DNA of 64,000 nucleotides from Actinomycetota bacterium (GCA_016235065.1 JACRMB010000004.1:3629-67628), one strand, 5' to 3'; shown: positions 7,089 to 51,058, counted from the first letter of the stretch. Numbers and translations are program-made. The notes: generated by a model from the sequence alone, not told the origin.

Positions 7089-7152
7089 CAGGCAGGAAGT
7101 CGGGCATTTCCCGACCAGCGAGAATCTGGCCGGAGAACAGGATGAATCACGA

Positions 7153-8809: not shown

Positions 8810-10143
8810 TGGCCACCCGCCATCGTCACGATATCCTCGGAAGTGACTACCCGCAGGTTAGCGCTGGCCCAGGCGACCATCTCCTCGTATGCCGCCCAGA
8901 TGGCTTCCTGCTCTTCGGCGGAGCGCACGGTGGAGCTCTCCGGTCTGGTCAGATCGAAGGGAGGCGACAGCGGCCGCGACTTGTCGCCACCGGTGAAGTA
9001 GTAAGCAGTCCAGCCTTCCGGCCCGCTGCGGGCGAAGTTGTTCTCATGGATAAGCGAGGTGATGATCGGCGGGCGGCCGACCGCCGCCGTGTTCCAGCCT
9101 GCGAGACGCTCCTGCAGGTAAGCGGTGGGATCATATTCTCCGGCATTGGGAGTCGTCAGCATGTTCCACCAGAAAGGTTCTTCACCTTTTTTGGACTGAG
9201 CACTTCCCGTGGCATCCCAGCGGGTGATGCTGAAGTCGCTTGGCCGCACCAGCAGGCCGTTCACCCAGACGAACGGCTCTTCCAGGTCCGTCCCTTCCTC
9301 ATGGTAAAGGAGGGTCATGTGTGCGCCGAGGTTGGCATACAGCTGCTGGCCGGCAGCCTTGATCTCGGGGCTCTTGCTGGGAACCGGCGCACAGACAGGG
9401 TCACGCCCGAAAGTGTCAGCAACATATGAATAGCCACCGGGCTGATCGCGCAGGAGGCCGCCAGTCGTCATATCGAGGGCGAAAGTCTCATAGTCTTGGA
9501 GCGTCGCCGCCAGCGCCGTTCCATCCAGGCCTTGCAGGCTCTGGTCGAACCCGGCATAGAGGGGGTGGGGAGGACGCACGTGATAACTGATCGTCATCTC
9601 GCTGTTCTTCAGTCGCTCGATCACATCGGGGCGTTCCCGGCTGTAAGCCTGCACGATCGGCGCAGTCAGATAGAAGTCGCCGCGAACGCCGTATTTCTCA
9701 TAGATGCCGATCAGCCTCAGGATCGTGTCAGCGCTCTCATCCACATGCACGGTGTCATGGACGTTGATCACGAATGTGATATAGCCGGGAGCGGTCTTAT
9801 CGAAGGTCGTGTAGGTGACGCCGCCACCAGCTCCGCCGTCAGTAACGCCATCCATCCCGGCCGATTCGGTGGCGCTGCCGGTCTCATCGGAAACCGCATC
9901 GCTGGTTCCGTCCGGTCCCGCGGCAACATCCGTGCTCGGACCGCCATCCGCCTCTCTGTCGCAGGCGAGAGCTGACAGCAGCAGCATCGCGCTTACCAGA
10001 GACACGAGCAGGAAAAACGTGATGCGCAGCCCGGCGCAAGTACCGCCAACCGTGCTGATACCGCCGGCCGTCACGCTGCTATCGCCACACAGCCGGACTC
10101 TGCGTATTCTGCTCTTCCCGCTCTCTCTGCTCACTCTGATCAC
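8806..10143 (-). CDS. secreted lipoprotein, putative polysaccharide-deacetylase-like hydrolase (paralog 1)
   Basis: GTG start; lipobox LSALAC; TFVINVHDTVHVDES...ISYHVRPPHP His-rich motifs; paralogous to the downstream gene. Family assignment is tentative. Confidence 0.45.
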   Translation of the reverse strand: MIRVSRESGKSRIRRVRLCGDSSVTAGGISTVGGTCAGLRITFFLLVSLVSAMLLLSALACDREADGGPSTDVAAGPDGTSDAVSDETGSATESAGMDGVTDGGAGGGVTYTTFDKTAPGYITFVINVHDTVHVDESADTILRLIGIYEKYGVRGDFYLTAPIVQAYSRERPDVIERLKNSEMTISYHVRPPHPLYAGFDQSLQGLDGTALAATLQDYETFALDMTTGGLLRDQPGGYSYVADTFGRDPVCAPVPSKSPEIKAAGQQLYANLGAHMTLLYHEEGTDLEEPFVWVNGLLVRPSDFSITRWDATGSAQSKKGEEPFWWNMLTTPNAGEYDPTAYLQERLAGWNTAAVGRPPIITSLIHENNFARSGPEGWTAYYFTGGDKSRPLSPPFDLTRPESSTVRSAEEQEAIWAAYEEMVAWASANLRVVTSEDIVTMAGGQ

Positions 10144-11321
10144 GTTTTCGGGTTGACGCCGGGATTGGTCTGCTCCCAGGCTTCATAGGAGTCGGCCATC
10201 TCCGAGAAGGTGGCCCACTGCACTCTTCCGGACGCCACCAGCGGATCGACAACTTCTGCCAGGAACCGGTCGATGACCTCGAACGGATGCTCCGGCTCGC
10301 CGCGGAACTCACCCGGATGGACCGTGAAGTGGAAGACGCTGACGCGGGAAGGATCTGCCTCAGCCTCGGCCAGCGACTGCATCAGGCTCTCTTTGAGAAA
10401 ATCGAAGTATGCCTGGTCGCCGCCCATAGCCCTGGCGGATCCGCCATAGTCGTTCCGTGAGTATGAGCCCTGGGGCAGGTAGACCACGGGACCGTCAGGA
10501 TCATGCGCGGCGAACTGTGAGACGTCGTTGCCGTTCGAGCCTCCGGCAGGCCGCCAGGGATTGATGCCTATCAGGTCGCTGACGGTTGTCTGCTCGTTCG
10601 GATTCTTCCAGTCGCTGTTGACATCGAGGCCGGCGCAGCTGGCCGCGTCGATGAGGCCGGGGTAGAGGTTGCCGCCGCTCCAGTAACGGATGTCTACTTC
10701 ACTGCCGGCGGCCTGCCTGATGAAACCGACCTCCTCCTTCATCACCGCGCACCAGGTCTCTGCAGGCAGTTCGTTGCCGTTCTTGCCCAGATGCGCGTCT
10801 TCATGAAAGTGAAGCGCGATCTCGTGGCCGCTGGCCGCCAGGTCGGAGAGCACGGGATCACCGCTACTGGCCGCGACTGTTGTGAAAGGGGTCTGCGCCT
10901 GCACGGTCATGCTGCCCTGGTGCTTCTCGACGATGGCGGCGACGGATTTTATATCTTCCACGTGCCGCTGGAAGAACTCAGGGTTGTTATAGTCCCCCTT
11001 GTTCGTCCAGGTCGGGCCCGCGGCATTGCCGCCCACGATCGGACTGGGCGAAGCGCCCCGCGGCTCGATATGCATGCCGATACCGAACAGGAGAACGCCG
11101 GCGGACGATGAGGTCGTGGCGCCGGTCGACGTCGATCCCACGGCTGATCCTTCACTGTCTCCAGTTTGCGAGAGACTCTCGTCAGCCGAATCACCCACAG
11201 TCCCTGTGGTGACGATTCCCGCATTCCCATCATCCTGTCCGTTCATAGAACAGGCGACTGAAAGCGAGAGCATGGAAGCGAGCAGCAATATGCCTACTGA
11301 TATCAGAATAATGCGCCGCAT
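10140..11321 (-). CDS. secreted lipoprotein, putative deacetylase/hydrolase-like (paralog 2)
   Basis: AGGAG RBS 10 nt upstream of ATG; signal peptide with lipobox LSVAC; EIALHFHEDAH motif. Confidence 0.45.
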   Translation of the reverse strand: MRRIILISVGILLLASMLSLSVACSMNGQDDGNAGIVTTGTVGDSADESLSQTGDSEGSAVGSTSTGATTSSSAGVLLFGIGMHIEPRGASPSPIVGGNAAGPTWTNKGDYNNPEFFQRHVEDIKSVAAIVEKHQGSMTVQAQTPFTTVAASSGDPVLSDLAASGHEIALHFHEDAHLGKNGNELPAETWCAVMKEEVGFIRQAAGSEVDIRYWSGGNLYPGLIDAASCAGLDVNSDWKNPNEQTTVSDLIGINPWRPAGGSNGNDVSQFAAHDPDGPVVYLPQGSYSRNDYGGSARAMGGDQAYFDFLKESLMQSLAEAEADPSRVSVFHFTVHPGEFRGEPEHPFEVIDRFLAEVVDPLVASGRVQWATFSEMADSYEAWEQTNPGVNPKT

Positions 11322-11552
11322 CTTTCATCACTCCTGACAACTGCTTCGCTTTTTAGCTTCCGTCACTATCATTATTGGTATTTACGGTTATCCCCGTGTA
11401 ACGGGAATGTAAAATCTCTGTAAGTGATTGCGGGCCCGCGACACCTGGGAAACTTGACTAATCCTCCGCTGTGCCAATATGCTCAGGACGAATTCTGTAA
11501 TGGGATCCCGGATGGAATGGATCGGGAAAGACGGGCAGGAGCAGATTCACGT

Positions 11553-12038
11553 ATGGCTGATAGTAAAGGCACAAATCCAGCGAGGAAATGGCGGCCGTCG
11601 CCGCCTGAACTGATCGTCCTGTTCGAAAAGCTCATCGAGGCCGTGCCCGGCGCTCAACCACGCAAGATGTTCGGATACCCGTGCGCATTCGTGAACGGAA
11701 ACATGTTTACAGGGCTGCACCAGGAGAACCTGATGCTGAGGCTGTCTGAAGAGGACCGCGCTACACTGCTCAGCATCAAGGGAGCGGCGCCATTCGAGCC
11801 GATGCCCGGCCGGGCGATGAAGGAATATGTCACCGTGCCGGATTCGATGCTGAAGAAACAAGCTGAGCTGAAGAAGTGGCTGGCAAGGTCATTCGGGTAC
11901 GCGAACTCGCTGCCACCCAAAGTAAAAAAGCAGCCGGCTGTGACAAAGAATTCTGCAGGGAAGAATCCAGTGGCGAAGAAGCAGCCCGCTGCGAAGAAAC
12001 AGGCGAAGAAGCCGGCCGGACCGGCAAAAAAGAGATAA
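11553..12038 (+). CDS. TfoX N-terminal domain-like protein with lysine-rich C-terminal tail
   Basis: RKMFGYPCAFVNGNMFTGLHQENLMLRLSEEDRATLL matches the TfoX_N pattern as I recall it; ATG at 11553 preferred over the longer ORF-track start at 11424; KKQPAAKKQAKKPAGPAKKR tail. Confidence 0.5.
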   Translation: MADSKGTNPARKWRPSPPELIVLFEKLIEAVPGAQPRKMFGYPCAFVNGNMFTGLHQENLMLRLSEEDRATLLSIKGAAPFEPMPGRAMKEYVTVPDSMLKKQAELKKWLARSFGYANSLPPKVKKQPAVTKNSAGKNPVAKKQPAAKKQAKKPAGPAKKR

Positions 12039-12594: not shown

Positions 12595-13395
12595 CTAAAC
12601 CGGCCGCATCGTCCCGAAGAACATCTGCCACGCCAGCGCCGACTTGGCCACCAGGCTGAGGATGATATACACCCTCTCACCGTAAAGGTAGTCTTTCCAC
12701 GGCCCGATCTGCCGGTACTGCAGCCACTGGTTCACGGCGAAGATGTTGAAGAAGATGAACAGCGAAACCATGATGCCGTAGACGAAGTCAGGTACTGATG
12801 TATCCGGGTACTGGTTGGACCCGATCGTGTAGAGCGCTATCACCACCCAGGGGATGATCCCCGCGAAGCAGCCGAAATAGAACGCGGTCCAGCTTGTCTT
12901 TTCCGTAGTCTGGTTATGCAGCTCCATCATGTAGCCAAAGAAGATCATGCAGGCGTTGATGCAGAAGATGAGGATCAGGCTCGAAAGGTCGTAGACGCCC
13001 ACCAACATGGCGATCAGCACTATCATGATCGACGAGCTCAGCGAATACTCCCACCAGCGCGCCTTGTTGATGTGCTGCTTGAGGTTTGCCACATACCAGT
13101 TGAATCCGAACGAAGCCAGGATGAAGTGCGCCATCGCCGACAGCAGCAGGAAGATGGCAACCATGGGTGCGATGCGCAGGGTATAAGGGTCCTGAAGATT
13201 CTGGACCAGTCTGCCGGAGGAGACATCGAATTTCAGGTAGATAGTCGACACCGGCAGTGAGAAGCTGGTGCTCAGCCACAGCATCAGCACACCCTGGCCC
13301 AGGTGCAGGCAGCCCATGATGAAGTTGAAGCGGCGAAGGCCGCCGTAGGTTATTTTACTGGCGGGCGCGGCGTCTGTAGCTAAGGCGATATTCAT
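12595..13395 (-). CDS. heliorhodopsin (7-TM retinal protein)
   Basis: Strong match to heliorhodopsin 48C12 as recalled: WWEYSLSSSIMIVLIA (TM3 with Glu counterion), FGCFAGIIPWV, VPDFVYGIMVSLFIFFN, GERVYIILSLVAKSALAWQMF (TM7 with retinal-binding Lys); GGGAGG RBS 5 nt upstream of ATG. Confidence 0.85.
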   Translation of the reverse strand: MNIALATDAAPASKITYGGLRRFNFIMGCLHLGQGVLMLWLSTSFSLPVSTIYLKFDVSSGRLVQNLQDPYTLRIAPMVAIFLLLSAMAHFILASFGFNWYVANLKQHINKARWWEYSLSSSIMIVLIAMLVGVYDLSSLILIFCINACMIFFGYMMELHNQTTEKTSWTAFYFGCFAGIIPWVVIALYTIGSNQYPDTSVPDFVYGIMVSLFIFFNIFAVNQWLQYRQIGPWKDYLYGERVYIILSLVAKSALAWQMFFGTMRPV

Positions 13396-14870: not shown

Positions 14871-15443
14871 TCAATACTTCCGAATGACCGCTCGCACGAT
14901 CGCCGCGACCCGCAGCTCGTTCTCCGGCGTGATCGGCCCGAACCTGCTATTGGCCGCTTCCAGCCAGACTTTGCCGCCGCGTTTGCGGTAATACTTCATG
15001 GTCCACTCGCCGTCGACCTCGGCGATGATGATGTCGCCGTCCTTCTCGGTGACGCCCCGTTCCACCAGCACCATGTCGCCGGGCATGATGCCGGCGTCGA
15101 CCATCGACTCGCCCTGCACCTTGAGCAGGTAGGTCTGCTCCGGGCGCTTGATGAGGAACTCCTCCAGGCTCATGGTGTCCAGCAGCTCCTCCTCGGCGGG
15201 AGAGGGCCAGCCGGCCTCGACCGTGCCGAGCTGGGGCACGGCGTTGAAGCGCCGCCCCGGCAGCAGTTTGCCGGTCTCGTCGCGCTCCACGAAGCCCTGT
15301 TCCACCAGCCGGTTCACCAGTTTGTAGGTGGTTCCCTTTGAGCGCAGGCCAGCCGCCCGGGCGATCTCGGCATGGCTGGGCATGCGCCGGTTGGCCCGGT
15401 AGAAGGCGATGATCTTATCCAGATGTTTTGGTGTCTTTTTCAT
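14871..15443 (-). CDS. lexA: LexA repressor (S24 peptidase)
   Basis: N-terminal wHTH (HAEIARAAGLRSKGTTYKLVNRLVEQGFVER), cleavage-site region VEAG, catalytic Ser in VQGESMVDAGI and Lys in WTMKYY. Confidence 0.9.
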   Translation of the reverse strand: MKKTPKHLDKIIAFYRANRRMPSHAEIARAAGLRSKGTTYKLVNRLVEQGFVERDETGKLLPGRRFNAVPQLGTVEAGWPSPAEEELLDTMSLEEFLIKRPEQTYLLKVQGESMVDAGIMPGDMVLVERGVTEKDGDIIIAEVDGEWTMKYYRKRGGKVWLEAANSRFGPITPENELRVAAIVRAVIRKY

Positions 15444-27301: not shown

Positions 27302-29953
27302 ATGCGGAGTAAATCCAGGCTGGTCCTGATTGCAGCGGTACTTCAGACAGCGCTTTTGATAGCCGTTTTCCTTCTGTCAGTAGATACCGCCACTGCTGGA
27401 TATCCAGGCATGATCCGGGTGTCAACAAACAGCAGTGGCGCCGAAGCGCACGGTGACCTGAGCTTCGCCTCGGCGGACTACAGAAGTTCTGCTATCAGCG
27501 GATCGGGTCGGTACGTAGCCTTCGAATCGCGAGCCACCGATCTGGTTTCTGGTGATACCGACGAACTCAGCGATATCTTTGTCAAGGACGCTGAGACTGG
27601 TGCGACTACGATGGTATCGACTGATTCTGCGGGCGCCGCGGTCTATTCTGAAAGCATAAGGCCATCGATTTCCACGGATGGACGTTTTGTCACGTTCACA
27701 TCAGATTCTCCAGATCTTGTAGCGGGCGATACCAATGGCGTCTCGGATGTTTTCCTGAAAGACACCCAGACGGGAGTGACCACCCGGATCTCAACCGATT
27801 CGTCCGGTGTTCAGGCGAATTCTTATGGGTTTTATTCTGCTATCTCAGGTGATGGGCGTTATGTGGCTTTCGAATCAGATGCAGACAATCTGGTTGCAGA
27901 CGACACCAATCAAGCAACAGATATTTTCGTCAAGGACACCCTAACCAGTGTGACTGCCAGGGTTTCCACTGATTCATCCGGCAACCAGGCCACGCGCACG
28001 GATACTCCCTGGTTCGGAAACAGCATCAACATGGCGCCGACGATCTCACATGATGGCCGCTATGTTGCTTTCCAGTCATTCGCCGAGAACCTTGCAGCTG
28101 GGGATGCAAACGGCTGCTGGGACATATTCATCAAGGATACTGTGACCGGAGGCACAACTATAGTATCTACCGACACAGCTGGCTTTCAGAGTAACTTCCA
28201 CAGCTATTATCCGTCTATCTCCGCCGACGGGCGCTATCTTGCGTTTGAATCCTGGTCCAACAACCTTGTCGCTGGTGATACAAACTATAGCTCTGATATA
28301 TTCCAAAAGGACATTCTGACAGGCGTTACCATGAGGGTCTCAACCAGTTCGTCAGGAGACCAGGGAGCCTACAATACTCCCTTTCTGGGTGGCGGTTCCT
28401 TCACACCGACGATCTCCGCCGACGGGCGATATGTCACTTTCATTTCCGAGGCTGCAAACCTGGCGCCTGGAGATGTAAACCGGGAGCGCGACATCTTCGT
28501 CAAGGACACAGTTACCGGCGCAACCGCGCTGGTCTCGTCCGACGCGGTGGGAAGAAACGGCATCGGCTACAGCTACGGCCCGGCCATTTCCGCGGACGGC
28601 CGCTACATTTCATTCCTTTCCGAAGATTACCTGCTGGTCCCTGATGACACCAATGCCGCCCGCGACTACTATAGAGCCCGTAACTCCCTCGCGACCAACC
28701 TCTATTTTCCCTGGTACGACAATCTCTACGGGCGCACCTGGCTGATGATGGCCAATCCAGCCGGCAGCAGGACCAGTTCTTACTATAACTTCCTGGAAGG
28801 CGACGCCCTGGATGCGAACATCTCTGTAGCTTCTGGCAGCACCGCATTTCGCCGCTATGATGGCCAGATGGGCGGGCCGGCGCAGTCCTTCGCTACCAAA
28901 TTCCAGCCTCTAGTCAGCGAGCGTTCGCTCTATGGCAGCTCATTCGAAGAGGTCTGGGCGACGCCTTACAAAGAACTGGATTCCCACTACTACTGGCCTA
29001 ATTATCTGGGTTCGTCCATGGACATGTGGGTGCTGGCTGCCAATCCTGAGGAGAATGGCGAGGCGATCCAGGTGGATCTGACCATTTTGACTGAAGGATC
29101 GCCCGGCACGCCGGTCACACAACAGCAGGTGATCCAGCCTGGGGATAGCTGGACCCCGATCGTTCCCGGACTTGCGGGCTATAGCGTTGAGGTCGAGGCT
29201 TACAGGGTGGGTGGTGCCCCGGACAATCCTGCCGACGCGCGCAAGGTGATCGCCTCCGAGCGCTCGCTGATGGCAGGCGCCTTCAACGAGATGCCGGGTA
29301 TCCCGGCGTCGCGGCTCAGCGATCACTGGCTCTGGCCCTGGTATGACAGTCTCAACAGCCTGGACTTCATCTGTGTCGGTAATCCCGGCAGCCAGCCGGT
29401 CTGGGTCTCTGTTTATGTGGGTGGCGTGCTCAGGGGTACGCCCCATCAACTTGCCGCAGGGCAGGTGCAAAACTGGGGCAGCTATCTGGAGAGGTACGCC
29501 GACGGTCCGGTGGAGGTATACGGCTGCGCCAACGGCTCAGTACCCTGTGATACTCCCGCTGACATCTATGCTTCGCAGGCTGTGGTATTCGGTCCTTCAT
29601 ATCAGGAGACGTCCGGAATCAGATATGAAGACCTGCTGCCGACAGCCCACTGGACCTGGTACGACATGAGCACGCCAGGCTCAGCTGATTGGGTTCTGGT
29701 TTCGAATCCAAACGATTACGAGATCTATTATGAGATCAGCATGCCCGGCCTGGATACAGCCGGGGACATTCGCGCCCATGGGATCCTTGGGCCGGGAGAC
29801 ACAGTTACTCCCACATTCCCTGGTTTTATCGGTGGCCCGGTCCAGGTAAGCGCCTGGCGTGATTCCCAGAAGAACGTGACTGCGAGCATATACAGTTCGC
29901 AGCGGGTTCTCTGGAACGGCTATTTCAACGAGCTGACTGGTTTGGGCTTTTGA
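27302..29953 (+). CDS. secreted protein: N-terminal TolB-like (PD40-type) beta-propeller repeats plus four copies of the shared ~105-aa C-terminal repeat module
   Basis: Signal peptide; repeated GRYVAFES.A.NLV.GDTN...DIFVKD blades; C-terminal repeats (about 28683..29950) with WPWYD, WVLVANP, GGPVQV and ASQRVLW motifs. Confidence 0.8.
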   Translation: MRSKSRLVLIAAVLQTALLIAVFLLSVDTATAGYPGMIRVSTNSSGAEAHGDLSFASADYRSSAISGSGRYVAFESRATDLVSGDTDELSDIFVKDAETGATTMVSTDSAGAAVYSESIRPSISTDGRFVTFTSDSPDLVAGDTNGVSDVFLKDTQTGVTTRISTDSSGVQANSYGFYSAISGDGRYVAFESDADNLVADDTNQATDIFVKDTLTSVTARVSTDSSGNQATRTDTPWFGNSINMAPTISHDGRYVAFQSFAENLAAGDANGCWDIFIKDTVTGGTTIVSTDTAGFQSNFHSYYPSISADGRYLAFESWSNNLVAGDTNYSSDIFQKDILTGVTMRVSTSSSGDQGAYNTPFLGGGSFTPTISADGRYVTFISEAANLAPGDVNRERDIFVKDTVTGATALVSSDAVGRNGIGYSYGPAISADGRYISFLSEDYLLVPDDTNAARDYYRARNSLATNLYFPWYDNLYGRTWLMMANPAGSRTSSYYNFLEGDALDANISVASGSTAFRRYDGQMGGPAQSFATKFQPLVSERSLYGSSFEEVWATPYKELDSHYYWPNYLGSSMDMWVLAANPEENGEAIQVDLTILTEGSPGTPVTQQQVIQPGDSWTPIVPGLAGYSVEVEAYRVGGAPDNPADARKVIASERSLMAGAFNEMPGIPASRLSDHWLWPWYDSLNSLDFICVGNPGSQPVWVSVYVGGVLRGTPHQLAAGQVQNWGSYLERYADGPVEVYGCANGSVPCDTPADIYASQAVVFGPSYQETSGIRYEDLLPTAHWTWYDMSTPGSADWVLVSNPNDYEIYYEISMPGLDTAGDIRAHGILGPGDTVTPTFPGFIGGPVQVSAWRDSQKNVTASIYSSQRVLWNGYFNELTGLGF

Positions 29954-41832: not shown

Positions 41833-44800
41833 ATGATAGCAAAGACATCTATTCGCTGTGTTACTGCGGCAGTGCTGTTCATGTTTCTTGTTCTGCTGTA
41901 CGTATCCAGCGTAATGGCAGCGCCCGGGCCGGATATCAGCGGGCTTGTTTCTCCCACACACGCTGATGAGAACACCTGGTACTCGAACAACGATCCTTCG
42001 TTTTCCTGGAGCTCCGCGTTTGAAACCGGCCTGGCAGGTTCGTATTCGACGCCGGGCCATTCATATGATGTCGCTGTTTCGGGCATATATGCATATATTG
42101 CGGATGGGGGTTACGGACTTCGTATAATCAACATCTCCAATCCGGCAAGCCCGACGCTCGCAGGCTTTTACGACACGCCCGCCGCCGCCAGCGGTCTGGA
42201 CATCTCCGGCAGCTATGCTTATGTGGCCGACGATACTAGCCTGCAGATAATCAACATCTCCAACCCGGCCAGCCCGACTCTGGCTGGATCACTTGCGATG
42301 TCCAGCGCCGTCGACGTTGCCGTTTCAGGCGACTTCGCTTACGTCGCCAGCTATGGCTACGGATTGAGAGTCATAGATATTTCGAACCCGGCCAGCCCGG
42401 CGCTCAGGGGAACATTCAATACGCCGGGCATCGCCGTAGGAGTCGCTCTTTCGGGAAATCATGCGTATGTGGCCGACAACAACTCCGGCCTACAGATAAT
42501 CGATGTCACCGATCCGGACAATCCGGCGTTCGCGGGTGCATACAACCCAGGCTATTCATTCTTAGCGGCCAGAGTTTCCGGGACGCTGGCTTATATGGCC
42601 GCAGGCAGTTCGGGCCTTGTCATCGTCGACATCTCTGATCCGGCTAATACGTCACTGGCTGGAGCATACGATACACCGGGCAGTGCTCTCGATGTTGCTG
42701 TTTCAGGAATCTATGCATATATGGCGGATTATTCCTCCGGCCTGCAGATCCTGGATATCTCAAACCCGGCAAATCCGACGCTGGCTGGCTCCTACGCCAC
42801 GTTGCCGGCCAGTTATGCAGAAGACGTCGATGTCTCAGGCAGTTTTGCATACCTGAGCGACTATACCGTCGGCCTGACGATCGTTGAAGCGTCTACGGCC
42901 ACCGGTTATTCCTATATATTCGACCAGAATCCGGCAACGGTACCGGATACTGTTTCCGAGGGGGCCGATACCAGCAAGGCCTACACTGATACCGGCGATG
43001 GCATCTGGTATTTTCATGTAAGGGCAGTGGATCCCCTGGGTAACTGGGGCGCGGCCAGCCATCGTAAAGCGCAGATCGACACCGGAGCACCGGTTATCAC
43101 CAACATCCTGCCTTCGGGCACCATAACCACCGGCGATCCCGCTACCGTACAGGCAGACCTGAGCGACAGCATCTCCGGCATCGACGTCGCCACGGGTTCC
43201 GTCTCAGTTGACGGTACTGAACTGACAGGCTGCGTCGTCAACAGCTCGCTGGTGAGCTGCGATACCAGCTCGGCCGGTTTCGCTGAGGGGGCACACAGCA
43301 TATCGGTGACCGCCTATGACAACGCGGGTAACCCCAATACGGCCACCGGATCCTTCTCAGTCGACTCCATCGCTCCCTCTGTGACCGGCATTCAGCCTGG
43401 TGGCACGATCAACACCACTTCGACGACCATAAGCGCTGATTATAGTGATTCCGGTTCCGGCATCGACTCCGCGACTGCGACAGTCTACCTGGATTCAGTG
43501 CTTGTTACAGGATGCACGGCTGATGCAGTTAGCGTCAGCTGCCCGGTCACGGGGCTGTCTGTAGGAGCCCATTCGATCACAGTGTACGTCAGTGACAATG
43601 CGGGCAACACCGGATCGGGGTCAGGCAGCTTCACCATGACCCTGAGCCGGGACTACTACTGGGGACGTTATGACGGCACCAACAGTCTGGACTGGATCCT
43701 GCTGGGGAATCCGCCTGGTTCATCAGGGAACCTGACATTCGATCTTTATATCAGCACGGATGAGCAGTCACTGGCGCCATTCGTCATACCCGGCTATGGC
43801 GTGGGTGAGGTGCCGCCGGGCCAGTCGATAACTCCGATGTTCAACATGCCACCGGCGGGCCCGGTCAAAGCCTTGTCCACTACGGGCGGTCAGGCTATCG
43901 CTTCCCAGCGCATCCTCTGGAAAAGCAGGTATTTCGAAGAGGTGCCGGGGATCGAGGCAGGAAGCTTGTCCAGCCATTATTACTGGACCTGGTATGACCA
44001 GTTCTCACCAGGATTCTCCCAGGATGAGATCATCGTCGTCAATACCAACACGGAGCCGGTCATGGTGGAGATCTCCTTTACTGATGTGGCTCATCCACCG
44101 GCGGCCGATCCTGTGGACGACACTTTCCCGTTGCAGCCAGCTGGGACTCCCGGAGGCACGGATACCCTGAGACAGAGTTACCCGGGCAAGATGGGCGGCC
44201 CTGTGGAAGTCAAGGCATGGCTGGCTGGCGGTACATACGAGAGCGATCCCAGGAATGTGGTAGCAACCCAGCGGGTGATCAAGGACCAGGGTGCCGCTAC
44301 GGAGCATCTAAACGAGGTCCCCGGCATCCCGGCAGATGATCTCACCAGCGATTACTGGTGGACCTGGTACGACTGGAACAGCTCGGGAGCTTCCAACTGG
44401 GTACTGGTCTCAAATCCCGGCGCTGAAGCAGTCCATGTGGATATCTCATTCAGGAACGACCAGACAGGGACGATTGAGACCCTGGATGCCGACCTGCCCC
44501 CGGCAGCTCCCGGTGTCGCCCCATGGACGCCCAGCTTCGCCGGCAAAAAAGGTGGGCCTGTTGAAGTCAGGGCGTCGCTCGCCAGCGACCATAACCAGCC
44601 GCGTGACGTCATCGCCTCCCAACGATCGGTCTGGACCACATTCTTCGAAGAGGTGCCGGGCTTCGCGGCCTCGCAGCTATCGCCCCGCTATCTATGGACC
44701 TGGTATGACTGGAACAGCGCCGGCTCACAGAACTGGGTGATGGTAGCCAATCCGACCGCGGATACGGTTCACTCCGAGATCTCCTTCAAGGACTCGACTA

Positions 44801-45021
44801 CCGGAGAGACCAGGGGGGACGCCAATGTGATCCTCCAGCCGGCCGGCTCCAACGGGTCCATCAGGTACCTGCGCTTCGACGGATACATGGGAGGGCCCGT
44901 GGAAGTAAAGGCCTACCTGGAAGGCAGCGATTACGTAACCAGTCCGCGTGATGTCATAGCCTCCCAGCGGGTGCTATGGAACGGACAGTTCAATGAGGTG
45001 CTGGGAACTCTGCTGGAGTAG
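41833..45021 (+). CDS. secreted surface protein: LVIVD-repeat beta-propeller, Ig-like domains, and five copies of the shared C-terminal repeat module
   Basis: Signal anchor; repeats GLRIINISNPASP/GLVIVDISDPANT (LVIVD family); two two-Cys Ig-like domains; C-terminal repeats (about 43645..45018) with WTWYD, WVLVSNP, GGPVEV and ASQRVLW. Confidence 0.8.
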   Translation: MIAKTSIRCVTAAVLFMFLVLLYVSSVMAAPGPDISGLVSPTHADENTWYSNNDPSFSWSSAFETGLAGSYSTPGHSYDVAVSGIYAYIADGGYGLRIINISNPASPTLAGFYDTPAAASGLDISGSYAYVADDTSLQIINISNPASPTLAGSLAMSSAVDVAVSGDFAYVASYGYGLRVIDISNPASPALRGTFNTPGIAVGVALSGNHAYVADNNSGLQIIDVTDPDNPAFAGAYNPGYSFLAARVSGTLAYMAAGSSGLVIVDISDPANTSLAGAYDTPGSALDVAVSGIYAYMADYSSGLQILDISNPANPTLAGSYATLPASYAEDVDVSGSFAYLSDYTVGLTIVEASTATGYSYIFDQNPATVPDTVSEGADTSKAYTDTGDGIWYFHVRAVDPLGNWGAASHRKAQIDTGAPVITNILPSGTITTGDPATVQADLSDSISGIDVATGSVSVDGTELTGCVVNSSLVSCDTSSAGFAEGAHSISVTAYDNAGNPNTATGSFSVDSIAPSVTGIQPGGTINTTSTTISADYSDSGSGIDSATATVYLDSVLVTGCTADAVSVSCPVTGLSVGAHSITVYVSDNAGNTGSGSGSFTMTLSRDYYWGRYDGTNSLDWILLGNPPGSSGNLTFDLYISTDEQSLAPFVIPGYGVGEVPPGQSITPMFNMPPAGPVKALSTTGGQAIASQRILWKSRYFEEVPGIEAGSLSSHYYWTWYDQFSPGFSQDEIIVVNTNTEPVMVEISFTDVAHPPAADPVDDTFPLQPAGTPGGTDTLRQSYPGKMGGPVEVKAWLAGGTYESDPRNVVATQRVIKDQGAATEHLNEVPGIPADDLTSDYWWTWYDWNSSGASNWVLVSNPGAEAVHVDISFRNDQTGTIETLDADLPPAAPGVAPWTPSFAGKKGGPVEVRASLASDHNQPRDVIASQRSVWTTFFEEVPGFAASQLSPRYLWTWYDWNSAGSQNWVMVANPTADTVHSEISFKDSTTGETRGDANVILQPAGSNGSIRYLRFDGYMGGPVEVKAYLEGSDYVTSPRDVIASQRVLWNGQFNEVLGTLLE

Positions 45022-45397: not shown

Positions 45398-45613
45398 ATG
45401 ATCAGCAGGCTTCTGGATATCTGCATTGGTGCTATGTTGGTCGCTCTGGTGGCACTGACTGCGCAGCTCGCGTATCTCTACATCCAGCCCGCGGAACTCC
45501 AGGCCGAGCAACTCGCACAGAGGACTTCATCGCATCCAGTGGTTAACGGTCAGGTGATCAGCGAGATGCCTACGGCTGAGTGCATGGTCTGTCACGCCGG
45601 CAGTCTGCCCTAG
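45398..45613 (+). CDS. small TM protein ending in a CxxCH motif (possible N-terminal fragment of a NapC/NrfH-like cytochrome)
   Basis: One TM helix then ...TAECMVCHAGSLP-stop; resembles the membrane anchor plus first heme site of NapC/NirT-type cytochromes but terminates immediately. Confidence 0.2.
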   Translation: MISRLLDICIGAMLVALVALTAQLAYLYIQPAELQAEQLAQRTSSHPVVNGQVISEMPTAECMVCHAGSLP

Positions 45614-45637
45614 CGCTTCCATTCTCGCTATCAACCA

Positions 45638-46186
45638 GTGAGGTGCGTCATTAAGTCGAGCTGCATCAATGCTATTTCCGGATTATTCCTGCTTGTGGCC
45701 CTGCTCTTTGTGCTTGCACTAGCCGGTGAGGCCCAGGCGCAGACGGCGCCTGTGTGCGGCTCCGCCGGCACGCCCACTCCCGGGAGCCTGCATGCCTCGT
45801 TACTGCGGGAACCCCTGTATAACAGCGAAGGCAATTTTCTCAGCATTTCTTGGGAAGGCGCCATTCCACCTATGGAAATATGGATAGATGACGCGCTTTC
45901 CGAAATCACATACGTAAGCAATGGCGGCTCTGGACAGGCCCGAAACGAGCCCGAAACTGCGACGCACGTGGTGGCATTCATCACGCAGGGATACGCGCCA
46001 GTGTGCATAGAGGTGGCTGTCAGTCCTTCAGTGACCCAGGACGCCTATCCCGCAGCGCAGCAGGGCGAGTCTGTGCTACCGTCGACAGGTTTTGACACCA
46101 TCATGTTGCTCGCAGGCCTGTTGACATCCTTGGCTGGTGTCTTTCTGCTGCACCAACGAGCGCAATCACGAGAAAACCCTTTCTAG
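45638..46186 (+). CDS. small secreted protein with C-terminal LPSTG cell-wall sorting signal
   Basis: Signal peptide; C-terminus LPSTGFDTIMLLAGLLTSLAGVFLLHQRAQSR (LPxTG, hydrophobic span, basic tail). Confidence 0.6.
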   Translation: MRCVIKSSCINAISGLFLLVALLFVLALAGEAQAQTAPVCGSAGTPTPGSLHASLLREPLYNSEGNFLSISWEGAIPPMEIWIDDALSEITYVSNGGSGQARNEPETATHVVAFITQGYAPVCIEVAVSPSVTQDAYPAAQQGESVLPSTGFDTIMLLAGLLTSLAGVFLLHQRAQSRENPF

Positions 46187-46197
46187 GAAGGAAATCC

Positions 46198-46254
46198 TGG
46201 TGCCGAAGGTGGGAATCGAATCCACACCGGGGGTGACCCCGACCGGATTTTGAG
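46198..46254 (-). repeat. 57-bp copy of the 3' half of tRNA-Leu(CAA) (anticodon loop to 3' end), candidate distal att site
   Basis: Identical to 50970..51026 except one mismatch; the 5' half of a tRNA is absent here. Confidence 0.75.
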
Positions 46255-46416
46255 TTACGCGTCCGACTTCCCGGTTGTCAACTTAAAGTCCCAGAATAGC
46301 GCTGTAAATTTTGGTTTCAATGCTACGCGCTTCACGGCTTATGCTATCCCTTACTGCTTGGTCCCACGAATTTGGTTGGCAAAATTTGGTGGAAATGAGG
46401 TGAACAAGCAGGAATA

Positions 46417-49400
46417 TCACAAACCTGCACCGACCAACTCGTTGAAGTAGCCTTTCCACAGTACCCTCTGCGAAGCTAGCACATTTGCGGGATTCTCTTT
46501 TGATGACCCGTTCCATTGCCAGGCTCTGACCTGAACGGGTCCGCCGATGATGCCGGGGAAGCGCGGCGTTACTCGCTGGCCGGGCGCCAATACGCCGTGG
46601 TTGGTCGAGTAATAAGGATCTGCGGGATTGGCTGGATCGAGTTTGCCAGGCACTGAGATCTCGTAATAAATAGCGCTAGCGTTCGGGTTTGCGACTAGCA
46701 CCCAGTTGAGCGAGCCGGCCGATTTTTCGTCATACCAAGTCCAGTTCGCGGTTGGTTTAAGGCTATTTAGCGGCACGCCGGCAGTCTCCTCGTAAGAAGG
46801 CCCATAGATCACGATTTGGGAAGTATATATGTTAGCCGGACTGTAACAAGCCTCAGTGGTGTCAAAACAGGCCTTGACCTCAATCGGGCCGTCCATCAAT
46901 TTTTGCGGTGAGCTATCCCACCAAATGGTCGTGCCCGATGGAACGCCGTCGCTACTGGCCATCAGTTGACCGTGCAGGTAAAGAAAAAGATAAACAGGCT
47001 CGGAGTTGGGATTGCCGACAATGACTAGGTCGTTTGCGTTTTGGCTGTCATACCATGGCCACTCGTATTCGTTGCTCAATTTCGAGGCCGCGATGCCGGC
47101 CATTTCGTTAAACGAGTCACCCATCAGGATACGTTCCGAGGCGACGACCTTGCGAGCATCCGCAGAATTATTGGGCGAGCCACCGACCCGGTAGGCTTTG
47201 ACCTCAACTGGTCCACCGCTGTAGGGCCAGGTTGGCGTCCAGGTATCACCCGGCTGGATCACATGCCTATTAACGTAGATATCCGGCACAGGTATTTTGT
47301 TGATGTCTTCAACATTTCGTATAGAAATGTCAACCTCGACAGCTTCCCCATTTTCGGCCGGATTTGCAACCAGAACCCATTCAGAAGTCATGCTGCCGAG
47401 GTAGACCGGCCAATAATAGTGCGTGTCGAGATCATCGTATGAAGTGGACCAGACTTCCTCGAAAGAGTTTCCGAACAGCGAACGCTCGCTCGAGATGCCG
47501 TTACCATACTGGGACATGATCTTGATCGGGCCGCCGAGTCTTTTGTCGTACGAGCGGAACTGCGTTTCCCCATCATTGACACCGATGCCTTGTTCAAGAG
47601 AGTTGGTCTTCATCCAGAAGTCGACGATATTCGTTCCACTGCCAGGCATTTGCGCTGCTAGCAGCCACGTATGACCATAGATATTGTCATACCAGGGGAA
47701 GTAATAATGCATCGGGGTCGAGTATGACCAGTCAGCGGTCTGGGTATTGCCTACAACGTCGCTCACTTCAAGGTGCACGTTTTGAATGCCACAATTAGGA
47801 TTGAAATAAGAGACTTGGTCAACAGAAATCGTTGCCCGAGAAGTAACGACGATTCCATTCACAGTCAGCTTGACTGAATTCGGATTGACTCCCGACTTCG
47901 AGTCAGTATAAGAAGCATTGATTATTGCCGTGCTGGCCCAAACGTTTCCACTCGGGCTCGTTCCTCCTATTTCAGGTTTTGTCGTTTCGACTTCGAAGCT
48001 GCCATTAAGGGTCGCGCTGTTGCCAGCTTTGTCTCGCCCGACTATCAAGAAATCATGGTGTCCGTCTGAAAGGCCCGACGCCTGGCACCTCAACAGAGAT
48101 GAATCAGAGATATCGCAATTGGTAAGCGGCTGGCTGCTACCATCCAGATAAACCGCGCTTGCGGAGCTGTCTGGCCCCGATTGCTGATCGCTCAAAGTTG
48201 CACCGATTACGGTCGCGCTGCCGCTCCAGACTGGAGGAATGGCTTCGGAAATCGCAGGGGGCGCGAGGTCGACGCCGAATGGTGAGTCAGACAGCCCCGG
48301 CGTTCCGTCATTAGTCTCATACGAGATCGTTAGAGAGTGCCAGCCTGCAGAAAAGTCTGAAGTTGAGCAGCTGAGATGAGCGCCGACGAGCGAGCAGCCA
48401 GGCGCTGAGGTATCGTCGATATAAACGGCTACACTGCTCGAATCGATACCCGAACCGTTATCCGTTAGGTCCGCTTCAATCGCTTGGCTGGTCGTACGGA
48501 GCCAGCCTGAAGGGGAGATGTTTTGCGCTTGGAGAACCAGTGGTCCCCATGATGGGGTGATTCGTTCATAAAAAGGATGGCCCAAATCCGCAATGTTGTA
48601 ACAGCCTCCACCCGTTGCTCTTGCTGTGCAAAGAGTGCAGTTGTTGGAGTTATCTTTTTGGATAAATGCAATACTGGTACCATCCGGTGACCACGCGGGT
48701 TGACTATAAAATGGGGACCATGTCCATGTTCGTGTAATCACGGGTTGTGGTTGTGTGCCATCGGGCTTCATCGTATAGATTCCCGAGTCATTTGCATTGA
48801 AATAAACGTAACAGGCAATTTTGGAAGAATCAGGCGCCCAGCTTGGCATCGAATTGAAACTGGCTGGCCATCCATAGACGTTAAGAGCGGTCTGGTTTCC
48901 ACCATCGGGATTAATAAAAAAGATTCCATAAGTACCACTGTTGGCGTTGAAGGCGATCCTGGAACCGTCTGGTGACCAAGCAGGATTCTCGTAGGTACCC
49001 GAATTATTAGTCAGTTGATTCAGCTCACTTCCGTCGGAATTCATTACGTATAGCTTCTGAACACCGAAGCCAACGATTCCAAACGTCCTCGTAAAAGCTA
49101 TGCGGGAACCGTCGGGCGACCAGGTGGGGCTGTCATCGTAATTCGAGCCGAAGGTCAGCTGACTTATGCTCATATCCGATAGTCTGAGAACGTAAATCTT
49201 ATTAGTACCATTTCTGTTGCTGGAAAAAGCTATCTTGCTGCCGTCAGGCGAGAAGGCGGGTGACTGTTCGACCGCGGGGCTATTGGTGATACGAGTTAGG
49301 CCGCTGCGGTCAGGATTTACAGTGTATATCTCAGCATTGCCATCCCTATAAGAAACAAAAGCAATCTTGCCGTTTGGTTTTACAGTGGCATCCGCTGAGG

Positions 49401-49542
49401 ACGACATGGCCAGGATGGCGATTACTGAGAAGAGGAAGATAAACGCAAATGAGGATTTTTGGCGTGCGCTTTCAACGAACCCACCCATTGCGCCTCCAGA
49501 ATCTGGCATATCTGAGAGAAGCTTAATTGAAACGATTGCCAA
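46417..49542 (-). CDS. secreted surface protein: TolB-like beta-propeller, two-Cys Ig-like domains, and four copies of the shared C-terminal repeat module
   Basis: N-terminal signal; GKIAFVSYRDGNAEIYTVNPDRSG-type PD40 blades; Ig-like domains with GC...C pattern; C-terminal repeats (about 46420..47715) with FPWYD, WVLVANP and ASQRVLW. Confidence 0.8.
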   Translation of the reverse strand: MAIVSIKLLSDMPDSGGAMGGFVESARQKSSFAFIFLFSVIAILAMSSSADATVKPNGKIAFVSYRDGNAEIYTVNPDRSGLTRITNSPAVEQSPAFSPDGSKIAFSSNRNGTNKIYVLRLSDMSISQLTFGSNYDDSPTWSPDGSRIAFTRTFGIVGFGVQKLYVMNSDGSELNQLTNNSGTYENPAWSPDGSRIAFNANSGTYGIFFINPDGGNQTALNVYGWPASFNSMPSWAPDSSKIACYVYFNANDSGIYTMKPDGTQPQPVITRTWTWSPFYSQPAWSPDGTSIAFIQKDNSNNCTLCTARATGGGCYNIADLGHPFYERITPSWGPLVLQAQNISPSGWLRTTSQAIEADLTDNGSGIDSSSVAVYIDDTSAPGCSLVGAHLSCSTSDFSAGWHSLTISYETNDGTPGLSDSPFGVDLAPPAISEAIPPVWSGSATVIGATLSDQQSGPDSSASAVYLDGSSQPLTNCDISDSSLLRCQASGLSDGHHDFLIVGRDKAGNSATLNGSFEVETTKPEIGGTSPSGNVWASTAIINASYTDSKSGVNPNSVKLTVNGIVVTSRATISVDQVSYFNPNCGIQNVHLEVSDVVGNTQTADWSYSTPMHYYFPWYDNIYGHTWLLAAQMPGSGTNIVDFWMKTNSLEQGIGVNDGETQFRSYDKRLGGPIKIMSQYGNGISSERSLFGNSFEEVWSTSYDDLDTHYYWPVYLGSMTSEWVLVANPAENGEAVEVDISIRNVEDINKIPVPDIYVNRHVIQPGDTWTPTWPYSGGPVEVKAYRVGGSPNNSADARKVVASERILMGDSFNEMAGIAASKLSNEYEWPWYDSQNANDLVIVGNPNSEPVYLFLYLHGQLMASSDGVPSGTTIWWDSSPQKLMDGPIEVKACFDTTEACYSPANIYTSQIVIYGPSYEETAGVPLNSLKPTANWTWYDEKSAGSLNWVLVANPNASAIYYEISVPGKLDPANPADPYYSTNHGVLAPGQRVTPRFPGIIGGPVQVRAWQWNGSSKENPANVLASQRVLWKGYFNELVGAGL

Positions 49543-49715
49543 TGATAACTGTAATAAGTGGCTTAGTCAAAATTCTGAGATCTGGCAATAAGCTAAGAAT
49601 GACCCATTATTGAAGCCCAATCATTGTAACGTCGTGCTACGCGGCTCATTAATCACCAGGGTCCGGGCGACCGCTGTCGACGACTATCTCTAGTTCTCCC
49701 ACACTATGATTGTTC

Positions 49716-49944
49716 TCAGGCGGCAGACAGCTTTCTTACCTTGAGATTCTTGCGATTCTGTTCGGCCAGCCACAGATCGTACTGCGTCTGCTGATTGAGC
49801 CAGCTCTCCGCCGAAGCTCCGAAGGCTATCGAAAGCCGTATAGCCATTTCCGGACTGATCCCAGCCCGGCCGTTGAGAATTGCCGAAAGCGTCTTGCGGC
49901 TGACACCGAGAGCATCCTACGCCCTTCAAGAACTTCTCGGGCAT
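49716..49944 (-). pseudogene. higA-like (HTH_XRE) antitoxin gene disrupted by frameshift / internal deletion
   Basis: One frame gives the start MPEKFLKGV...; a second frame, entered after in-frame stops, gives [53 protein letters not shown], a typical HigA HTH core; no toxin ORF in the adjacent 235 bp. Confidence 0.55.
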
Positions 49945-50181
49945 TCAGACCCTAAACAACGATGGTCTATGTGACAAGCCCAGGTTTTTGATGCCAGTCC
50001 ATAGTTTAGGCCGGGCGTCTGTATGTGAGAGGAACCTGGGATGATATACCGTTGGCAGGCCGATTTCGGCTTAAACGGAACCCCTGACTCTTCCCTTAAA
50101 GCGAAGTATGCCGGTAATCACCACAAAAATATCGAGGACGCACCGGGTGCGCCCTCGGGCTAATCAGTTTATCTGATGCTG

Positions 50182-50688
50182 CTAGGCCTTACGGCGATTC
50201 TTCCTGAAGGTCGCTGCCCCCAAACCACCCAGAACCAGCCCTGCCGCCGGCAATAGCAGCATGAAGCCCGTGCTAGGCAGAGTGGCGGGCAATGAAGCTG
50301 GTGCGTATGCGTTCTGTTGCACGCTCTCTGTCACAGTGAAAGTCTCCGGGCACGCAATATCAATATCTTCGCTATCTGTTCCTTCAACGATGATGTTGTG
50401 GCTGCCCACAACAGCATCGGCTGGTATTGTCAGGACATCATTGAAATTTCCGGAGCCGTCACTAGTCGTTATGCCCAGTAGTGTAGTGCCGCTGACAGTG
50501 TCAAAGAACAATCCTAATAAATCACTGCTCCTTGCCCCGGAACCGCTATAGCTAACAGAGCTCCCGGCTGGCCCCTGGTTGGGGGTCAGGGTGAAACTTA
50601 CAGTGCCGCACGCGCTTTGAGCATAGGCCATGGGAGCTAAGGCAAGCGTAAAAAATATAGCTACAACTAATGCGACAACTTTCTTCAT
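50182..50688 (-). CDS. small secreted protein with C-terminal LPSTG cell-wall sorting signal
   Basis: Signal peptide MKKVVALVVAIFFTLALAPMAYA; C-terminus LPSTGFMLLLPAAGLVLGGLGAATFRKNRRKA. Confidence 0.6.
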   Translation of the reverse strand: MKKVVALVVAIFFTLALAPMAYAQSACGTVSFTLTPNQGPAGSSVSYSGSGARSSDLLGLFFDTVSGTTLLGITTSDGSGNFNDVLTIPADAVVGSHNIIVEGTDSEDIDIACPETFTVTESVQQNAYAPASLPATLPSTGFMLLLPAAGLVLGGLGAATFRKNRRKA

Positions 50689-50969
50689 GATGATTCCCCT
50701 TCTCCGTTTGTCCAGAATGATTTCGGTCCTGTTTTTTTAATTTTTTTGCCGGCAGCTAATCAAGGTCGGCAAACCAAAAAAATTATTTGACCATTGTATA
50801 CTTATTTCCCCTGGATGATATAAAACTGGCGATAGCCAGAGAGGTGGCTGGGTTTGTTTGGACAGCAAAATGCTTTTTTATAAGTGGCAAGAAGTCCCCT
50901 GTTCATGCCGTCATCTCATTGGCGAGCGTAGGGCAATAGACCTCATCTGGTGTTCTCCTGCTCAGATTC

Positions 50970-51058
50970 TGGTGCCGAAGGTGGGAATCGAACCCACACC
51001 GGGGGTGACCCCGACCGGATTTTGAGTCCGGCGCGTCTGCCAGTTCCGCCACTTCGGC
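50970..51058 (-). tRNA. tRNA-Leu (anticodon CAA), CCA encoded
   Basis: Minus-strand sequence GCCGAAG-TG-GCGGAACTGGCAGACGCG-CCGGA-CTCAAAA-TCCGG-long variable arm-TGGGTTCGATTCCCACCTTCGGCACCA; 7-bp acceptor stem pairs GCCGAAG/CTTCGGC; anticodon loop CUCAAAA; long variable arm (class II). Confidence 0.85.

Follow-up and report, generated by a model that had tools for sequence, protein, structure and literature searches.

Two small genes, A and B, in a 64,000-nucleotide stretch of actinobacterial DNA (the window, meaning the whole stretch analysed) are likely to encode two unrelated surface proteins of a monoderm actinobacterium that are processed by a sortase, and the two genes are located in an integration hotspot at tRNA-Leu(CAA). 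LPXTG cell-wall anchor proteins are substrates of sortase transpeptidases, and A and B appear to be ordinary new members of this class. Both reading frames were present with exactly the C-termini given in the original prediction, and consisted of the following parts (signal peptides were judged by inspection).

45638..46186, + strand: protein A reading frame, 182 aa counted from a GTG start
A residues 1–34: signal peptide, predicted cleavage between AQA and QT
A core: acidic orphan domain with C40 and C123
46031..46048, + strand: linker motif VTQDAY of A, common to A and the B family (tail HMM test)
46076..46090, + strand: LPSTG pentapeptide of A, codons CTA CCG TCG ACA GGT
A tail, in order: VTQDAY linker, LPSTG, hydrophobic span, HQRAQSRENPF
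50182..50688, − strand: protein B reading frame, 168 aa
B residues 1–23: signal peptide, predicted cleavage between AYA and QS
B core, about residues 30–120: seven-strand Ig-like sandwich with C27 and C113 (AF2 model)
50305..50322, − strand: linker motif VQQNAY of B
50266..50280, − strand: LPSTG pentapeptide of B
B tail, in order: VQQNAY linker, LPSTG, hydrophobic span, RKNRRKA
50133..50157, − strand: terminator-like hairpin (11-bp stem, 8 GC pairs, T-run)

The N-terminus of A reads MRCVIKSS...LFLLVALLFVLALAGEAQA and that of B reads MKKVVALVVAIFFTLALAPMAYA, followed after the putative cleavage sites by QT and QS, respectively. In both proteins LPSTG was followed by ~20 hydrophobic residues and an Arg/Lys-containing tail, weakly basic in A (HQRAQSRENPF) and basic in B (RKNRRKA), as had been claimed. 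All window ORFs of at least 60 aa were scanned for LPXTG-type tails; only A and B carried one, and the LPXTG-model matches fell exactly on these tails. Like known LPXTG anchor proteins (PF00746; TIGR01167), A and B begin with a signal peptide and have, ~30 residues before their end, an LPXTG that a hydrophobic span and a basic tail follow. Their scores were 16.4 (A) and 14.8 (B) bits for Pfam Gram_pos_anchor (PF00746; cutoff 20), and 13.0 and 15.1, just under the cutoff of 15.9, for TIGR01167. The A orthologue P0006 (93% identity), which NCBI annotates as an LPXTG anchor protein, passed TIGR01167 at 19.0. Four further proteins scored singly, namely three members of the B family (P0018 and P0022 among them) and a B-like copy in L011, passed at about 19–21 (19.2–21.1 for P0018, P0022 and the L011 copy), and 15 of 18 B-family members matched this model at E ≤ 1.

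Mature domains of A and B were both ~116–117 aa, acidic and Lys-free, with two Cys each. The original prediction of paired cysteines near the N-terminus did not hold: one Cys lies 4–6 residues past the predicted cleavage site (C40 in A, C27 in B) and the second ~85 residues further on, in the last strand (C123 and C113), while the remaining two Cys of A (C3 and C9) fall in its signal peptide. The core of B was modelled by AF2 with pLDDT 81–91, and by this model is a generic Ig-like sandwich. Compared with Ig-like extender and stalk domains from bacterial adhesins and S-layer proteins (Lap/MpAFP extender repeats, RbmA and MG domains of alpha-2-macroglobulin), it showed 4–19% identity; these domains form tandem arrays whereas B has a single domain, and no functional site was transferable. 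The AF2 model of A, built from a two-sequence alignment, had pLDDT 45 and gave no usable fold. Exhaustive phmmer searches found no real homologues of A other than its orthologue. An apparent match to the 4157-aa protein P0023 (E = 1.8e-50) consisted of 23 matches of ~10 bits each to near-identical repeats, and was rejected as repeat inflation.

B had 21 homologues in other genomes, of 111–202 aa. In 18 B-family sequences the two Cys were invariant or nearly so, although core identity was only 30–48%, and the signal-peptide A-x-A and the following Q were kept family-wide. The homologous genes occupied conserved chromosomal positions rather than islets and lay repeatedly inside Wood-Ljungdahl clusters, a small curiosity in itself. 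A scan of genome contigs with the B-family alignment revealed no relative. A degenerate QDAY...LPSTG DNA pattern gave mostly chance matches over the same contigs, the only true ones being L068 and L105, which were the already known L009 and L011. Scanning metagenomes yielded only partial Ig-domain matches, apart from one additional family member (L014).

A and B had been proposed to form a small paralogous family. Full-length BLASTP gave 28% identity (E = 2e-5), but this was due only to the signal peptide and tail and vanished once these were removed, so paralogy was rejected. The B-core HMM scored the A core at −1.3 bits, a value that many shuffled sequences exceeded. In hhalign the cores matched with a probability of 0.5%, and only the QDAY linker aligned. 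What stood of the proposal was a common C-terminal module, V-x-Q-[DN]-A-Y...LPSTG followed by the hydrophobic span and basic residues, and the AYPA/AYAPA segment noticed earlier proved to be a real part of its family-wide linker. The A tail scored 28.0 bits against an HMM of B-family tails only, while 3000 shuffles of its pre-LPSTG linker scored 16.3 ± 2.6 bits and none reached 28.0. By sequence comparison, paralogy of A and B cannot be demonstrated, and they have only this extended sorting module in common. The same tail occurs on P0022, whose core differs, and on an L005 protein of 113 aa. Such a cassette, common to several cores in the lineage, is probably an extended recognition signal of the lineage's sortase; the generic LPXTG model has neither the V-x-Q-[DN]-A-Y linker of the A and B tails nor the (F)LLPAAGLL hydrophobic core of the B family. 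A more far-reaching reading is doubtful: that V-x-Q-[DN]-A-Y, 5–15 residues, LPSTG, (F)LLPAAGLL and RRRR form an undescribed, lineage-specific extended sorting signal of Thermoleophilia/Gaiellales-like Actinomycetota, served by a dedicated non-class-E sortase and attached to unrelated small cores, with carriers mobile on tRNA-Leu islets here and the B family fixed in Wood-Ljungdahl clusters. If it were true, that placement would hint at a surface function tied to this metabolism.

The actinobacterial sortases of which examples have been characterised belong to class E. These enzymes favour LAXTG over LPXTG, and their substrates are small actinobacterial surface proteins that become covalently joined to the wall by a housekeeping sortase (PMC5148588). 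A and B resemble class E substrates such as the Streptomyces long chaplins ChpA–C (LAXTG) in being small actinobacterial surface proteins, but they carry LPSTG, with Pro at P3, and have no chaplin domain. Since their signal is not the class E LAXTG, the sortase class is probably different, and we infer that the responsible enzyme is probably A-, C- or F-like, or else an LPXTG-tolerant class E sortase. The very short (~105 aa) sortase-dependent EF2685/EF0750 family (NF053819) matched A/B-type proteins weakly over signal peptide and tail (E 2e-4 to 6e-2); membership was rejected, as scores of 13.8–22 bits were far under the 47-bit cutoff and the cores showed no similarity.

On the preferred reading, A and B would be exported by Sec and cleaved after the A-x-A site, and the C-terminal hydrophobic span and basic tail would hold them in the membrane. 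A sortase whose gene lies in another part of the genome would cut LPSTG between T and G, and the mature domain, probably disulfide-stapled, would then be linked to peptidoglycan; an adhesive or structural function may be supposed. In agreement with the original prediction, the window yielded no sortase gene (PF04203), either by Pfam (longest ORF per locus, at least 150 aa) or by a TLxTC active-site regex, and the regex found none in 20 related loci (~150 kb). A literature search on sortase in Thermoleophilia found no papers. Database hits name Actinobacteria or Thermoleophilia MAGs, and Logan contigs matching the window ends were short and all inside the window.

This lack of a sortase in the window and related loci, together with the scores of A and B under both curated thresholds, would fit C-termini that are plain anchors in the cytoplasmic membrane, with LPSTG incidental and no sortase processing. 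We consider this quite unlikely: the L, P, T and G positions do not vary among all 18 B-family homologues, A and its orthologue, while the neighbouring linker varies freely; a simple anchor does not require this pentapeptide; and family members pass TIGR01167. It is highly improbable that A and B are pilin subunits (minor, tip or base) which a class C sortase dedicated to pili would polymerise. B is indeed a small Ig-like LPXTG protein, and some family members match the SpaH/EbpB model weakly (tail only, E ~1e-3, far below cutoff). However, 18 of 20 mature domains, those of A and B included, have no Lys and hence no pilin-motif nucleophile, no sortase or other pilin genes adjoin any copy, and the single ~90-aa domain is far smaller than known pilins.

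The third explanation, that A, B or both are islet debris, in decay or without function, concerns A in this genome especially. As shown by the sequence and its alignment with the relative L004, A has the following codon.

45650..45652, + strand: ATT codon where the orthologue has its ATG start

This ATT stands 4 nt past a Shine-Dalgarno-like GAGGTG (45640–45645), with a 1-nt insertion just upstream, and the native upstream region of A has been lost, the end of orf71 standing in its place. The sole canonical in-frame start, GTG 45638, overlaps GAGGTG, so the start of A is uncertain in this genome. The basic tail has changed from RRR in the orthologue to HQR, to which its lower TIGR01167 score (13.0, against 19.0 for the orthologue) was attributed. 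From these sequence changes, the A copy looks weakened and may be poorly expressed. A higA pseudogene in the islet and the absence of an integrase from it point the same way. On the other side, the reading frame of A is intact, with dN/dS against P0006 of 0.29 for the whole frame and 0.15 for the sorting signal alone, and translation could begin at GTG 45638 or at the ATT after GAGGTG, or A could be co-transcribed with orf71. B starts with ATG behind a good GGAG-type ribosome-binding site, belongs to a conserved family, and has the terminator-like hairpin 25 nt past its stop codon, which came from a consensus scan only, the regional total of such matches being not above shuffles; the hairpin suggests that B may be monocistronic. 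Debris was judged unlikely, and sortase-processed surface proteins remain the preferred reading.

The original prediction had placed A and B at the edges of a tRNA-bounded islet. The islet was real, being delimited by a 57-bp direct repeat with 1 mismatch (2 matches, 0 expected by chance), but only one edge is an intact tRNA gene, the opposite one being a tRNA fragment.

46199..46255, + strand: left direct repeat, att-like, a partial copy of the tRNA-Leu(CAA) 3′ half
46417..49542, − strand: 1041-aa secreted protein, islet cargo (Pfam; GC3 0.556)
49702..49916, − strand: frameshifted higA antitoxin remnant, 88% identical to intact higA in L004
50970..51058, − strand: intact tRNA-Leu(CAA), whose 3′ half (50971–51027) is the right direct repeat

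The islet is compositionally foreign (GC 0.51 versus 0.587), and GC3 of B was 0.544. Its content was the 1041-aa protein, the higA remnant and B; no integrase or recombinase was detected in it by Pfam, so the element has either decayed or is mobilised in trans. The 1041-aa protein combines a PD40 beta-propeller with Ig-like domains and, towards its C-terminus, repeated units; it is distantly paralogous to the product of 41833..45021 (BLASTP, 32% identity over 664 aa).

A had been described as lying just outside the islet. Nominally it does, yet A too is mobile cargo, belonging to the tRNA-Leu hotspot that holds the islet. In L004 its orthologue is bracketed by tRNA fragments (9721–9786 and 10545–10606) and followed by the intact higA. 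A and the L004 copy share 93.9% nucleotide identity (dS 0.115), against 75–81% (dS 0.82–0.85) for the flanking core genes, indicating recent transfer of A. The suggestion that the proteins travel with the element was therefore upheld in part: B lies in the foreign islet and A, on these other grounds, is hotspot cargo, but the homologues of B elsewhere are chromosomal. Small integrase-less islets would have accreted at tRNA-Leu(CAA), B arriving on the present 4.7-kb low-GC islet and A being a residue of an older module exchanged recently between lineages. Known tRNA-gene hotspots with tandem islet accretion likewise have a repeat of the tRNA 3′ half, foreign composition, variable cargo and toxin-antitoxin remnants; they differ in that here no integrase was found in the window islet or the L004 array (Pfam labels), and the modules are unusually small, that of A only ~0.8 kb.

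Two further ideas about the locus were discarded. A functional pairing of each small protein with its neighbouring ~1050-aa protein was conserved neither in L004 nor at any B-family locus. Logan contig L001, which spans exactly 46226–50998, was considered as an excised circle, but an assembly-graph break at the repeat explains its span.

A and B add two more small, uncharacterised sortase-type substrates to the known surface proteins of an uncultured and little-studied actinobacterial lineage, and they show that genes of this type are exchanged through a tRNA-Leu hotspot. The shared extended tail could help to define the sortase specificity of the lineage. Current understanding of sortase biology is not challenged, and the importance of these findings is modest. 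As envelope context, the window also carries genes for a GH25 muramidase and a heliorhodopsin.

The original prediction, which held for the most part, described two small secreted proteins, A and B, with LPSTG sorting signals, and both ORFs were found as described, with the same C-termini.

45638..46186, + strand, ORF of protein A (182 aa)
46076-46090, LPSTG of A
50182..50688, - strand, ORF of protein B (168 aa)
50266-50280, LPSTG of B

Each N-terminus was a typical Sec signal peptide (...LALAGEAQA/QT in A and ...LAPMAYA/QS in B), and after each LPSTG came a hydrophobic stretch of ~20 residues, then a basic tail. When all window ORFs of at least 60 aa were scanned for the pattern L[PAS]x[TSA][GANS] with a hydrophobic span and basic residues, these were the sole canonical LPXTG-type tails. 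Matches to the curated models Gram_pos_anchor (Pfam, cutoff 20) and TIGR01167 (NCBIfam, cutoff 15.9) fell precisely on the two tails, scoring just below both cutoffs (16.4 and 13.0 for A; 14.8 and 15.1 for B). Scored individually, the orthologue of A (P0006, 19.0 bits) and three sequences of the B type (P0018, P0022 and a copy in locus L011; 19.2-21.1 bits) passed TIGR01167, which 15 of 18 B-family members matched at E<=1. In an alignment of 18 B-family members, with cores 30-48% identical, the L, P, T and G of LPSTG were invariant and the S was present in 17, and the linker before LPSTG varied in length and sequence. The LPSTG of A was also that of its orthologue; dN/dS for the pair was 0.29 overall, falling to 0.15 within the sorting signal. 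Architecture and conservation give good support for reading A and B as putative sortase substrates; both are new and uncharacterised additions to a class of surface protein that is very well known.

In agreement with the original prediction, no sortase gene was detected in the window, either by Pfam on the longest ORF per locus (at least 150 aa) or by a TLxTC/His/Arg regular expression, nor was one found across ~150 kb of sequence from related loci. The actinobacterial sortase type of which characterised examples exist, class E, favours LAXTG (PMC5148588), so the enzyme acting on the LPSTG of A and B is probably of another class.

A and B had been proposed to be paralogues. Full-length BLASTP aligned them with 28% identity (E=2e-5), but this evidence of homology was gone once both proteins were trimmed of the signal peptide and of the C-terminal part starting at LPSTG. 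The A core scored -1.3 bits against an HMM of five B-family cores, under many of 2000 shuffles, and hhalign of the two cores gave a probability of 0.5%, aligning only 14 residues around 'V.Q[DN]AY.PA'. In contrast, the A tail scored 28.0 bits against an HMM of 13 B-family tails (V-Q-x-x-A-Y to the C-terminus, A left out); shuffling only the 19 residues of A before LPSTG, with LPSTG and the hydrophobic span kept, gave 16.3±2.6 bits, and 0 of 3000 shuffles reached 28.0. The same kind of tail was carried on a different core by P0022, and a version of it without the QDAY linker by a 113-aa protein in locus L005. Thus A and B have in common a modular C-terminal sorting cassette and no common domain, the proposed relationship holding for the tails but not for the cores.

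Paired cysteines near the N-terminus, also proposed, gave way to another conserved pattern, with one cysteine of each mature domain just after the signal-peptidase site (C40 in A, C27 in B) and one in the last strand (C113 in B, invariant in the B family; the second in A was C123). The arrangement points to a putative disulfide joining strands A and G. When AF2 was run on an alignment of 5 sequences, B was modelled with confidence as a seven-strand beta-sandwich (pLDDT 81-91 over residues 30-120), and a profile search of PDB sequences returned no significant match. B was identical to 'hypothetical protein HZB44_05415 [Actinobacteria bacterium]'. The AF2 model of A had a pLDDT of 45, and an exhaustive phmmer search of 1.84 billion representatives with A returned only P0006 and repeat-inflated matches; a 4157-aa protein (P0023) was rejected as a homologue, its 23 matches of ~10 bits each being repeat inflation. 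The only real homologue, P0006, was 93% identical, came from a Thermoleophilia MAG and carried the name 'LPXTG cell wall anchor domain-containing protein'. The A core is an orphan. Mature A and B were acidic (pI ~4) and without lysine, as were 18 of 20 family sequences in the latter respect, which is evidence against their being shaft subunits of pili.

B lay in an islet between two copies of a direct repeat, and A just outside it.

46199-46255 and 50971-51027, 57-bp direct repeat, 1 mismatch, the 3' half of tRNA-Leu(CAA)
50970-51058, intact tRNA-Leu(CAA)

Zero matches of this kind were expected by chance. The 4.7-kb islet (GC 0.51 vs 0.587 in the rest of the window) contained B, a frameshifted higA remnant and a gene for a 1041-aa PD40/Ig protein, with no integrase; B had a GC3 of 0.544 and the 1041-aa gene one of 0.556, vs 0.63-0.83 in host genes. 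B was followed by a strong terminator-like hairpin. The higA remnant (49702-49916, - strand) was without higB and 88% identical to an intact higA after the orthologue of A in a related locus, L004. Genes at 41833-45021 (+ strand) and 46417-49542 (- strand, in the islet) encoded secreted proteins of ~1050 aa with 32% identity over ~650 C-terminal residues; the N-terminus was LVIVD in one and PD40 in the other, and the shared part included Ig-like domains and a ~110-aa unit (YYWTWYD...GGPVEVKA...ASQRVLW), repeated 3-4 times, for which Pfam had no match. The gene in the islet also showed 69-73% nucleotide similarity to a PD40 gene at 27302-29953. A 4773-bp Logan contig (L001, SRR12113407), an independent short-read assembly, corresponded to 46226-50998 and ended exactly at both repeat copies, consistent with a graph break at the repeat and giving no evidence for an excised circle.

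The window and L004 had a common backbone (orf71 on the left; tRNA-Leu, Lcl_C, orf90, two metallophosphoesterases and PPDK on the right) with 75-81% nucleotide identity. Between its two sides, L004 contained four partial tRNA-Leu(CAA) 3' fragments delimiting four small modules.

4904-4950, 9721-9786, 10545-10606 and 11374-11445, tRNA-Leu(CAA) fragments
15269-15357, intact tRNA
Modules: MMPL/two-component; orthologue of A (between 9721-9786 and 10545-10606); higBA; radical-SAM/hydrolase

The modules contained no integrase according to their Pfam labels, and the arrangement resembles a tandem accretion array at a single hotspot. B was absent from L004. The A module was 93.9% identical between the two loci, and dS was 0.115 for A vs 0.85 and 0.82 for the flanking orf71 and orf90, so A was exchanged, or came to both from one donor, well after the host lineages had diverged. 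Only the repeat criterion in the window genome puts A outside the islet; A too is cargo of this hotspot. Missing from the window were the upstream tRNA fragment and the native 190 bp upstream of A, and A abutted the end of orf71, the conserved 71-aa ORF (45398-45613), whose 3' end stood in place of the native sequence. Within 45614-45652, the ATG of the orthologue was ATT in window A, with a 1-nt insertion just before, so that translation could start at GTG 45638, which has no SD, or at the ATT, which has one; the tail had HQR for RRR. With its upstream sequence replaced, window A may be co-transcribed with the 71-aa ORF, or may be weakly expressed or poorly translated.

A profile search placed 21 members (111-202 aa) in the B family, whose genes were chromosomal and off islets wherever contigs were long. 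In three distinct actinobacterial MAG lineages the gene lay between folD and a dsrC-like gene, itself upstream of acsD/cooS/acsB, in a Wood-Ljungdahl (acetyl-CoA pathway) cluster (fhs, RACo, cooC, folD ... acsD, cooS, acsB, acsC).

L005/L006/L007, lineage 1; small LPSTG genes in L005 at 10001-10498 and 11479-11820 (the second for the 113-aa protein)
L008/L009, lineage 2, 'uncultured Gaiellales bacterium'; L008 6196-6690, L009 6124-6618
L011, lineage 3, 'Actinomycetes bacterium'; three tandem copies, 5226-7094

In L010 a B-family gene adjoined an amidase gene. Window B was ~40% identical to its nearest relatives and is an islet-borne outlier of the family. Thus the view that these proteins travel with the element applied to both genes in the window genome (B in the islet, A as hotspot cargo), but not to the B family in general.

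The window also encoded a 2353-aa surface protein (27-7088, + strand) with six Big_13 Ig-like domains, a NosD/beta-helix region and a CE2_N-like region, and no LPXTG tail. The heliorhodopsin (12595-13395, - strand; Pfam E 9e-103), GH25 muramidase, MMPL and LVIVD/PD40 surface proteins of the window fit a peptidoglycan-walled actinobacterium.
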